A stretch of 64,000 nucleotides of DNA, from the NCBI RefSeq assembly GCF_003334305.1, contig NZ_QOWS01000016.1; one strand, written 5' to 3'. Source of the DNA: Escherichia coli (lineage in GTDB: Bacteria; Pseudomonadota; Gammaproteobacteria; Enterobacterales; Enterobacteriaceae). A model generated the notes under the pieces. It did no database searches. It was not told the origin of the DNA and saw only the letters and a program-made list of their open reading frames with translations. Below, piece by piece: positions 57,268-57,761 of the stretch; position 1 is the first letter of the stretch; each line of letters opens with the position of its first letter. Position numbers and translations under genes: made by a program.

Positions 57268-57439
57268 GAAAACCCAGTCCTTGCAAAGATGAAGTCGAAA
57301 TGCGCGATGACACACTACTGAAAGCGGAAGGACGAGTAAAGTTGCAATTAAAAGGAAATGTTATGCATAAGGAGCAGTAGAGTATTCGTTTTCATTTAAA
57401 GATATTCTTGCGCTTTAATTACAAACTGCACCGATGTTG

Positions 57440-57660
57440 GTGGCGTCAAAATCGCCGAGGCGTTCCCTGAAGGCCGGGGCAGCCCACATGGATGTGGGCT
57501 GAGGGCGCGTTTTACAGGGATGTTACCTCGCGCCCGACCCGGTAGCCGTAAGGTATAAGTCGAGGGCACCGCGCAGCGGCGATTTTGTTCGCCAGAGCCC
57601 GGGGGTGCATGGGGCGGCGGCGATTGGCCGCCCCCTGCGCGCTCTTTGCGCCAGTGGCAA
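57440..57660. other. GC-rich, ORF-poor segment with tandem strong palindromes upstream of ybjE
   Basis: AGCCCACATGGATGTGGGCT (perfect 20-bp palindrome, 57481-57500), GGGCGCG-N19-CGCGCCC (57503-57535), GGGGCGGC...GCCGCCCC (57611-57635); no ORF of 60 aa or more in the track on either strand. Confidence 0.4.
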
Positions 57661-57721
57661 TATGTGGCTTAGCTCATGAAAGGAGCGCAACAAGATGATG
57701 AATCAACATATAACAACATCT

Positions 57722-57751
57722 TAAAAAAAGGCCTGATATTACGCCAGGCCT
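57722..57751 (-). terminator. Rho-independent terminator of aqpZ
   Basis: AGGCCTG-loop-CAGGCCT hairpin with A7 on plus (U-run on the minus strand) just after the aqpZ stop. Confidence 0.65.
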
Positions 57752-57761
57752 TCTGCGTTAA

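Follow-up and report, generated by a model that had tools for sequence, protein, structure and literature searches.

A TRIP1 Intergenic Repeat between lysO and aqpZ of Escherichia coli: Covarying Fold, Enterobacterial Relatives, and Possible CsrA-Type Loops

Identity of the Element in the lysO–aqpZ Spacer

The genes lysO (ybjE; 56368–57267, minus strand), encoding an L-lysine/thialysine exporter, and aqpZ (57762–58463, minus strand), encoding aquaporin Z, are neighbors in a 64-kb stretch of Escherichia coli DNA (contig NZ_QOWS01000016.1) that we analyzed as a whole and refer to as the window; both were assigned from the list of open reading frames (ORFs) and the annotation of strain K-12, in which lysO is b0874. 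The 494-bp spacer between them (57268–57761) consists of three parts: a segment of 158 bp on the lysO side, a central block of 266 bp (57426–57691), and a flank of 70 bp on the aqpZ side. The central block is almost certainly TRIP1a, one copy of the already published intergenic repeat TRIP1, with its sense strand on the plus strand of the window.

The first description of TRIP1 is that of Rudd (1999, Res Microbiol 150:653), and Li et al. (2024, Genes 15:236, PMC10888264) later surveyed it; what we say of this literature refers to the sections of it available to us. In the survey, TRIP1a occupies NC_000913.3 915016–915281, has a length of 266 bp, and leaves gaps of 158 bp to the ybjE start downstream of it and of 70 bp to the aqpZ stop upstream. 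With window positions equal to NC_000913.3 positions minus 857590, a relation anchored by the K-12 locus and by window position 57436 being K-12 position 915026, these coordinates map onto 57426–57691, and the flanks of 158 and 70 bp are reproduced exactly. The window is approximately 99% identical to K-12 at this locus, and TRIP1a here is 266 bp long with a GC content of 64.3% (published range, 62–65% G+C) and a minimum free energy (MFE) of −136.1 kcal/mol. Coordinates, length, flank distances, and GC content all match published TRIP1a and therefore settle the identity.

The survey reports a variable copy number and direction of TRIP1, a predicted stable "double-Y" RNA fold, and inversions resulting from recombination between copies; besides TRIP1a it describes TRIP1b by putP, which has a 125-bp internal deletion, and TRIP1c downstream of yohI (dusC), which has the opposite orientation, and it places copies at putP–ycdN, yohI(dusC)–yohG, alx–sstT, and copA–ybaP (Li et al. 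2024, PMC10888264). In MG1655 we find the yohP–dusC copy inverted and the putP–efeU copy shortened such that it is without the two-hairpin part described later, both in agreement with the published TRIP1c and TRIP1b. All of the 5426 complete E. coli genomes carry the central block, and the number of places per genome reaches 10, the median being 3. TRIP1a is the one TRIP1-like module in the 64-kb window, and the E. coli copies are solo. An additional observation concerns the asmA–yegH spacer, a locus beyond the five that the available sections of Li et al. (2024, PMC10888264) name: in K-12 DH10B it carries a 5′-truncated TRIP1-like remnant of another subfamily (locus L135, ~1881–2000) that covers AATAGCCGAAAGGAATAAG and what follows it, domains 2 and 3 included. 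We considered this locus as a third full K-12 copy and rejected it as such, the K-12 sequence being the truncated remnant only; a full copy is found at the same place in Escherichia strain SCPM-O-B-8794 (locus L029, 8836–9001), and in some E. coli strains a RelE/ParE toxin–antitoxin pair is inserted in the asmA–yegH intergenic region.

An earlier note on this DNA, made from the sequence alone, had listed a structured leader RNA, a nucleoid-protein binding array, and a less common repeat family of the boxC or RSA kind without choosing among them, and had held that a match to a known family, together with a ybjE transcription start within about 50 bp of the start codon, would make the region an ordinary repeat. 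The repeat option was right in kind, and the match to a known family exists in TRIP1: the block is a dispersed repeat found in all genomes surveyed, and the label boxC/RSA was given up once TRIP1, which has its own family name in the literature, had been recognized. Both boxC and RSA belong to the minor families of intergenic repeats in E. coli, and both are GC-rich and palindromic; boxC is approximately 56 bp with approximately 32 copies and RSA approximately 152 bp with 6 copies, compared with 266 bp and 3 copies in K-12 for TRIP1. There is an entry for boxC in PMC2267715, and a literature citation equates "BEE95" elements with RSA; consensus sequences for boxC and RSA were not found in the literature searched.

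The remainder of the spacer is AT-rich, so that the description of the whole region as GC-rich held for the central 266 bp and failed for both flanks. The lysO-side segment (57268–57425, 158 bp, minus strand), delimited by its base composition of 37.3% GC, presumably contains the promoter and control region of lysO, and its first 104 bp (57268–57371) are common to both haplotypes of the locus, which align at 95–99% and then diverge; the promoter scan gave no sigma-70 consensus in this segment. The aqpZ-side flank (57692–57761, 70 bp) is 35.7% GC and includes an intrinsic terminator of aqpZ, AAGGCCUGGCGUAAUAUCAGGCCUUUUUUU on the minus strand (57723–57752), which was read by eye and was missed by the terminator scan because its loop is 9 nt; this hairpin is not part of TRIP1. 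As had been noted before, the spacer is devoid of ORFs of 60 aa or more, the longest ones lying wholly within it being 57 aa and 56 aa on the minus strand and 37 aa on the plus strand. The sole longer frame that touches it is that of lysO itself, which continues without a stop past the annotated ATG (57267) as far upstream as a GTG at 57315 and would give 315 aa compared with the annotated 299 aa. In strain 14EC029, the lysO–aqpZ match, which is in two pieces and approximately 1 kb longer than the query, overlaps an annotated ISApl1 (IS30-like) transposase gene.

Three-Domain Fold and Strand Preference

The strong inverted repeats to which the earlier note drew attention are present: arms of 10 nt at 57480–57489 and 57492–57501 are 100% complementary, arms of 12 nt at 57607–57618 and 57627–57638 are 92% complementary, and a long-range pair of 16 nt (57447–57462 with 57572–57587) is 88% complementary. 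A supposedly perfect 20-bp palindrome, AGCCCACATGGATGTGGGCT (57481–57500), has fully complementary 9-nt arms and is interrupted by a central GG; it is a hairpin with the loop UGGA. The region folds better than its dinucleotide shuffles (MFE z-score −3.9 on the plus strand and −3.45 on the minus strand), none of 200 shuffles folding equally well, and its helices covary in 59 related copies. The judgment that the sequences are not REP-like was correct, there being no match to the 35–40-bp palindrome of REP/BIME elements within 57426–57691, and the REP-derived naRNA4 model matched only flanking REPs at other loci.

The three-domain fold is kept by compensatory changes across the family. For the core, this was determined with an alignment of 59 distinct sequences (A3) and the curated helices P1a, P1b, P2, P3, hairpin 1, hairpin 2, small hairpin, and P5, in which the invariance of AGGCCGGG, CATGGATG, and AGGG, hairpin 1 loop included, is by construction as these blocks were fixed by the search pattern. 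Of all cells in the curated core, 93.3% are paired, and 30 of the 49 pairs are changed on both sides (342 cells), which are the compensatory changes across Enterobacteriaceae that had been proposed as a check. The covariation score of 0.356 compares with 0.135 for shuffled alignments, none of 500 reaching the observed score, and with 0.068 or less when the partners are slid.

Domain 1 (57441–57594, plus strand), the core that resembles the Rfam motif TwoAYGGAY, is closed by P1a (57441–57445 with 57590–57594; 5/5 pairs doubly changed) and P1b (57447–57454 with 57580–57587; 5/8 pairs doubly changed). Within it, CCGAGGC (57455–57461) and GUCGAGG (57559–57565) form P2, in which 4/5 pairs are doubly changed and a tandem GA (57457–57458 opposite 57562–57563) is invariant in 59/59 copies. 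Hairpin 1 (57480–57501), which corresponds to the alleged 20-bp palindrome, has a 9-bp stem with 7/9 pairs doubly changed and the loop UGGA inside ACAUGGAUGU, and hairpin 2 (57503–57535) has an interrupted stem and a hexaloop AGGGAU that is closed by C–G and lies inside UUACAGGGAUGU. The loop of hairpin 2 was outside the search pattern, and its GGA is kept in 59/59 copies while the neighboring N and Y positions vary. Two further plus-strand elements complete the domain: a small hairpin GCC-GUAA-GGU (57545–57554) with a GNRA-type loop in most E. coli-type copies, for which the variation is one-sided and the support weak, and the P5 hairpin CCGC-GCA-GCGG (57569–57579), which is 100% paired with 3/4 pairs doubly changed.

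Domain 2 (57607–57638, plus strand) is a 12-bp GC hairpin with the loop GGCGAUUG, recognized as an inverted repeat and by stem covariation across genera (GCAGGGGG/CCCCCUGC, CCAGGG/CCCUGG, and UUAAGGG/CCCUUAA). Domain 3 (57639–57688, plus strand) has a stem, predicted by MFE folding and by covariation, in which GCGCUCU (57639–57645) pairs with AGGAGCGC (57681–57688) around approximately 35 nt; its variants are GCGCUCC/GGAGCGC, CGUUCAC/GUGAACG, and CGUUCGC/GCGAACG. The covariation of this stem explains an apparent gene start in the region, as the Shine–Dalgarno-like AAAGGAG in front of ATGATG (57695; 57679–57697) is the 3′ strand of the domain 3 stem and not a gene start.

The two strands of the element are not equivalent. 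In 57 of the 59 copies, the plus strand is the more stable one when folded, by a mean of 7.2 kcal/mol, and for the whole of TRIP1a the values are −136.1 kcal/mol on the plus strand and −118.9 kcal/mol on the minus strand. Non-Watson–Crick cells on the plus strand are G·U in 55 instances compared with 9 of A·C, at 18 and 6 pair positions, respectively, an excess that comes from few independent events, many copies being related. Together with the invariant tandem GA of P2, the bias suggests, without proving, that selection acts on one of the strands in its single-stranded, folded state, be it RNA or DNA, and we regard it as probable that TRIP1 is a strand-specific structured nucleic acid under selection. 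In the window, the favored plus strand is antisense to both lysO and aqpZ.

Relatives in Enterobacteriaceae

TRIP1 is the E. coli branch of an Enterobacteriaceae-wide family of non-coding intergenic elements of approximately 250–300 nt that are mostly located at gene 3′ ends. The family was searched for in a single scan of 100,044 species genomes with a pattern derived from the invariant blocks; all counts are lower bounds and the absence of Salmonella and other genera from the matches carries no meaning. The matches listed, to which the following counts refer, include at least ~88 distinct copies, all credible ones of which are in Enterobacteriaceae and which represent at least eight genera: Escherichia, Citrobacter, Enterobacter, Klebsiella, Leclercia, Silvania, Pseudocitrobacter, and Atlantibacter. 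Both neighboring genes could be called for 64 of them, and 32 of these are in convergent, 28 in co-directional, and 4 in divergent intergenic regions; in co-directional regions, the element is closer to the stop codon of the upstream gene. This pattern of location and orientation is that of REP- or ERIC-like intergenic repeats. A phage or plasmid origin was rejected, because no phage record matched and the 34 matching records from the plasmid collection, several of them megabase-sized, were all typed as non-mobilizable.

A covariance model built from alignment A3 was searched over 670 kb of fetched loci and revealed a second, more divergent module beside the first at 17 loci in Citrobacter, Leclercia, Silvania, Enterobacter, Atlantibacter, and Pseudocitrobacter (loci L012, L017, L021, L027, L042, L043, L048, L062, L072, L074, L086, L087, L099, L100, L108, L109, and L122). 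The modules are arranged head to head in 17 of 17 cases, the left one on the minus strand and the right one on the plus strand, with 43–202 bp between them; many of these loci may be orthologous and not independent. The partners belong to different subfamilies and so are not simple inverted duplicates. Whichever side transcription came from, the RNA would with this layout include a single sense module, located distally.

Several members of the family deviate from this description or have other repeats close by. In a 541-bp contig of Silvania hatchlandensis (locus L082, 46–230), hairpin 1 is tandemly duplicated, resulting in three GGA hairpins. In six copies (L084 6390–6574, L096 8471–8655, L115 8286–8470, L021 1250–1399, L100 13346–13492, and L122 1334–1546), the 3′ part of domain 1 gives way, each time at the same point, to GAGG followed by ACAAAATTGCCGGGAGC and then by AATTTTGAACAGCGC(T/C)TGCGCTGGCCCC; this recurrent variant suggests a second element or a shared rearrangement. 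The doublet spacer of Atlantibacter contains the palindrome TGTCGCTG...CAGCGACA, and in Klebsiella pneumoniae a REP-like GCCGGGTGGCGGCTGCGCCTTACCCGGCCTAC lies beside a family member. Approximately 100–200 nt downstream of modules in Enterobacter, Leclercia, and Silvania is a palindrome of the form GTTCCCCCTCACCC..CCCTCTCCC-loop-GGGAGAGGG, which is sometimes arrayed; repeats beside modules were seen at loci L032, L092, L094, L117, L080, L073, L116, and L090 and in the flanks of L129–L134. The CCCTCTCCC...GGGAGAGGG palindrome beside these non-E. coli members is an element different from TRIP1, and we assume that it could be boxC.

Alleles at the lysO–aqpZ Locus

The lysO–aqpZ arrangement of the window is found in 4028 of the 5426 complete genomes (~74%). 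In AR_0119 (locus L006, 569–1024) and O157:H7 F7386 (locus L007, 566–1022), TRIP1 is inverted at this locus and is approximately 90% identical; the immediate flanks are different, the terminator hairpin of aqpZ is absent, and the TRIP1 sense strand starts 44 nt after the aqpZ stop. A simple inversion as the origin of this allele was rejected, given that the element is approximately 90% identical compared with 95–99% for the flanks, and the sequences immediately beside the inverted element differ from those of the window without being their reverse complements. In Eco889 (locus L009, 569–982), TRIP1a has lost both GGA hairpins through an 80-bp deletion bounded by CGCCGA and CGCCCGA, and an O25b:H4-ST131 genome shows the same match pattern with 94% coverage. 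Strain muskdeer13-4 (locus L008) has a larger deletion that is like that of TRIP1b. In all of the inverted and deleted alleles compared, the 104 bp beside lysO are unchanged.

TRIP1a is thus very probably not part of a lysO leader. The earlier note had proposed a structured ybjE leader RNA, which is at odds with the better-folding strand being antisense to lysO, with the occurrence of the same element at unrelated loci, and with its inversion or deletion at this locus in other strains. The Rfam scan that had been recommended for a lysine riboswitch gave no such match on either strand over 56300–58900 at E ≤ 10.

Resemblance to TwoAYGGAY and to CsrA Sites

The sole Rfam match obtained at this cutoff is a full-length one to RF01731, TwoAYGGAY, at 57446–57585 on the plus strand (30.8 bits, E 0.034, gathering threshold 43). 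Together with the window copy, four copies match this model, and the relatives score 31.4–37.2 bits on the same module (best scores 37.2, 32.0, and 31.4). The highest score, 37.2 bits, belongs to a divergent partner module in Enterobacter quasihormaechei (locus L048, 2004–2168, minus strand), so that the TRIP1 family may grade into RF01731. The correspondence extends to individual features: the 13-bp P1 (P1a plus P1b), which covaries and closes the two hairpins, matches the long P1 of TwoAYGGAY with a tandem GA in the stem, and loop 1, AUGGAU, fits AYGGAY, whereas loop 2, AGGGAU, has G at the Y position and the relatives show A-N-GGA-Y with N being G, U, A, or C.

A motif study has independently predicted CsrA binding for TwoAYGGAY (PMC4333381). 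The consensus obtained for CsrA by in vitro selection of ligands (SELEX) is RUACARGGAUGU, in which the GGA lies in a hexaloop that AC/GU closes, and one CsrA dimer can bridge sites that are 10–63 nt apart (review PMC7652899). The domain 1 loops ACAUGGAUGU and ACAGGGAUGU match this consensus, and their two GGA motifs are 28 nt apart. A search for ACANGGATGT on both strands of the 64-kb window gave two matches only, which are the two loops of domain 1, and the GGA motifs of ACAUGGAUGU and UUACAGGGAUGU lie in hairpin loops that match the CsrA consensus, as expected of Csr/Rsm-type decoys. Judged by these loop sequences, CsrA is a possible ligand of TRIP1, an assignment that we make only tentatively.

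Several observations weigh against a CsrA-binding RNA of the TwoAYGGAY class. Every RF01731 score is below the threshold of 43, so that formal membership in TwoAYGGAY is not reached. The SELEX ligands mostly have 4 or fewer base pairs (PMC7652899), compared with the very stable 9-bp stem of hairpin 1. In the tables of Potts et al. (2017), which cover one growth condition, no K-12 CsrA peak from cross-linking and immunoprecipitation sequencing (CLIP-seq) contains either hairpin sequence, and in the supplements of the same study dusC and ybjE are marked "No" in all CLIP columns and are unchanged in the csrA mutant; low expression may contribute to the missing signal. Scans for consensus sites, covering the window and three doublet spacers, detected in or beside the element neither a sigma-70 promoter nor an intrinsic terminator of the kind that would mark a discrete small RNA (sRNA); weak promoter-like hexamers occur in some non-E. 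coli copies. Finally, co-directional copies among the matches listed are divided into 14 sense and 14 antisense to the host gene (approximately 9:8 without orthologous loci), and this unbiased orientation is unexpected for a purely cis-acting RNA element.

Proposed Role and Alternative Explanations

The explanation that we favor, with moderate confidence, is that the block is a TRIP1a repeat that would function as a folded single strand, may bind a CsrA dimer, and is probably silent at this locus. TRIP1 would act most likely as RNA produced by sense read-through from a neighboring gene, and each copy would bind one CsrA dimer via ACAUGGAUGU and ACAGGGAUGU, thereby titrating CsrA or tethering it to the 3′ end of the host transcript. 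The copy in the window is probably a silent passenger because its sense strand is antisense to aqpZ and lysO and no promoter was found; what is documented for it is that it serves as homologous DNA in recombination with the other copies of TRIP1 (Li et al. 2024, PMC10888264). We also considered a broader proposal, namely that TRIP1 and its relatives are the enterobacterial branch of the orphan TwoAYGGAY class, dispersed and recombining RNA modules that would each clamp one CsrA dimer by means of two optimal hairpin sites, and we regard it as doubtful.

The main rival is that TRIP1 is purely a DNA-level repeat, a REP/ERIC/REPIN-like cruciform or single-strand-DNA hairpin whose loops are recognized by a DNA-binding protein and which is spread or maintained by an enzyme or by recombination; we consider this a serious, if minority, possibility. 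It would account for the lack of orientation bias relative to host genes and the avoidance of divergent promoter regions, for the mosaics with REP-like and other palindromic repeats, for the scans without promoter or terminator and the missing CLIP signal, and for the presence of both orientations and of deletion variants at a single locus, recombination between TRIP1 copies being known to cause inversions (PMC10888264). The head-to-head arrangement of all 17 adjacent pairs outside E. coli is reminiscent of REP doublets, but the partners come from different subfamilies and are only loosely alike, not complementary arms. The flanks show no associated transposase and no other gene that recurs, the context varies by locus, and the lack of phage-record matches together with 34 plasmid-collection records all typed as non-mobilizable counts against this explanation. 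An excess of G·T over A·C is equally expected of a single-strand DNA intermediate that uses one strand, whereas the multi-branched fold, the invariant tandem GA, the GNRA-type loops, and the CsrA-consensus hexaloops look more like RNA. If the element is RNA, it could also be an independent sRNA gene on the plus strand, with its own and possibly activator-dependent promoter, which makes a short CsrB/CsrC-like decoy. Solo copies in Silvania, Leclercia, and Enterobacter share approximately 55 AT-rich nt upstream with the pattern TTAAAG-17 nt-(G/A)A(T/G/A)AAT placed approximately 7 nt before a conserved TTACAGCGA that itself lies just before P1, the left end of the E. coli element (TTACAAAC..GCACCG) resembles a degenerate version of this segment, and the AT-rich doublet spacers could hold divergent promoters. 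The shared segment, seen at loci L080, L081, L084, L088, L089, L073, and L086, falls below the consensus-scan criteria and is maybe a weak promoter. Such a gene is unlikely, as the consensus scan found no outward promoter in the window or in three doublet spacers, several doublet spacers are 43–51 nt and not AT-rich, the sequences after domain 3 show other repeats and neither a terminator nor T-runs, and the E. coli repeat unit ends approximately 15 nt before P1 so that any −35 element falls outside it.

Three further explanations fare worse. That the element is a bidirectional transcription barrier or terminator, or a stabilizer of mRNA 3′ ends, in which a large hairpin with an A-tract and a T-tract (CAAAAUCGCCG...CGGCGAUUUUG) insulates the lysO promoter from aqpZ read-through, is very unlikely. 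On either strand, UUUU does come after the GC stem P1b, the family favors convergent regions and positions just past stop codons among the matches listed, and the inverted haplotype, in which TRIP1 begins 44 nt past the aqpZ stop, is without a separate aqpZ terminator hairpin; against this stand a tract of only four U, stem strands that are approximately 125 nt apart, a terminator scan without any terminator-like site, and conserved GGA loops, tandem GA, and domains 2 and 3 that are left unexplained. That lysO has in this block a structured 5′ leader or riboswitch responsive to lysine or some different signal is highly improbable, even though the block is highly structured and lies upstream of lysO. 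The regulation of lysO by lysine is, as Pathania and Sardesai are said to have reported in 2015, mediated by ArgP, and a paper on LysO topology contains nothing on the lysO promoter. Neither a lysine riboswitch nor any other cis-regulatory Rfam family matched save TwoAYGGAY, whose match falls on the strand opposite to that of lysO; the element, separated from the start codon by 158 bp, recurs at unrelated loci, the lysO-sense strand folds less well, and at this very locus O157:H7 has the element inverted and the O25b:H4-ST131 genome has lost both hairpins with the 104 bp beside lysO retained. The chance of a small protein, encoded by the 56–57-aa ORFs on the minus strand, the 37-aa ORF on the plus strand, or a 9-codon ATGATG... 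ORF after AAAGGAG, is negligible. These ORFs exist and the Shine–Dalgarno-like AAAGGAG is 9 nt before the ATG at 57695, but AAAGGAG is the 3′ strand of the domain 3 stem and covaries with its partner, and the sequences after the ATG differ between copies. The small-protein reading was rejected on the grounds that single-base indels between copies are frequent and that substitutions are compensatory for the helices.

As an ordinary and already catalogued repeat, TRIP1a is not worth pursuing as a lysine riboswitch or as a lysO leader. Since 1999 the literature has treated TRIP1 only as DNA homology for rearrangements. The available sections of that literature deal with E. coli genomes and a thermodynamic RNA fold only and include no covariation, no strand analysis, and no link to TwoAYGGAY; in a term search of them, CsrA, Klebsiella, and Shigella were absent and Salmonella occurred solely within the title of a reference. 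New here are the covariation-backed three-domain structure, the preferred strand, the family spanning at least eight genera, the likeness to an orphan Rfam motif, and two hairpin loops matching the CsrA consensus, which provide a testable hypothesis for the ligand. If the link to CsrA is true, a ligand would be assigned to TRIP1 and probably to TwoAYGGAY, and a strain-variable component would be added to a well-studied post-transcriptional network. With 1–10 copies per genome, some having three hairpins and many occurring as doublets, the modules would then titrate CsrA, or tether it to 3′ untranslated regions, to an extent that differs between strains, and alleles that are inverted, as in O157:H7, or that have lost the hairpins by the 80-bp deletion, as in the ST131 genome, would shift Csr-dependent physiology between lineages. 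Interest in the element is modest unless this link is confirmed.

Comparison with Known Systems

TwoAYGGAY (RF01731; Weinberg et al. 2010, PMC2864571) is like TRIP1 in having two adjacent hairpins with A-Y-G-G-A-Y or similar loops, an AG linker, a long outer stem, and a tandem GA, and also in being gamma-proteobacterial, present in multiple copies per genome (Psychromonas ingrahamii), and not consistently located 5′ of genes. TRIP1 differs by the G at the Y position of its second loop, AGGGAU, and by an additional P2 with tandem GA, P5, the small hairpin, and two further domains beyond the Rfam model. The likeness fits homology as well as convergence on a CsrA-type site, between which it cannot distinguish. 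The CsrB, CsrC, and Rsm decoys, which are grouped in Rfam clan CL00106 where TwoAYGGAY is also listed, share with TRIP1 the hairpin-loop motif CA(N)GGA(U/C)G and a spacing suited to one CsrA dimer; unlike CsrB and CsrC, TRIP1 has two sites per copy rather than approximately 18–22, very stable stems, no promoter or terminator that we could find, and no CLIP-seq signal. REP/BIME and ERIC (IRU) elements resemble TRIP1 in being non-coding, structured, dispersed, and polymorphic in both presence and orientation, in occurring at gene 3′ ends and in convergent regions in either orientation, and in often being parts of repeat mosaics. In contrast to REP and ERIC, with which it has no sequence similarity, TRIP1 is much larger and multi-branched, has a far smaller copy number of approximately 1–10, and pairs in a strand-asymmetric manner.

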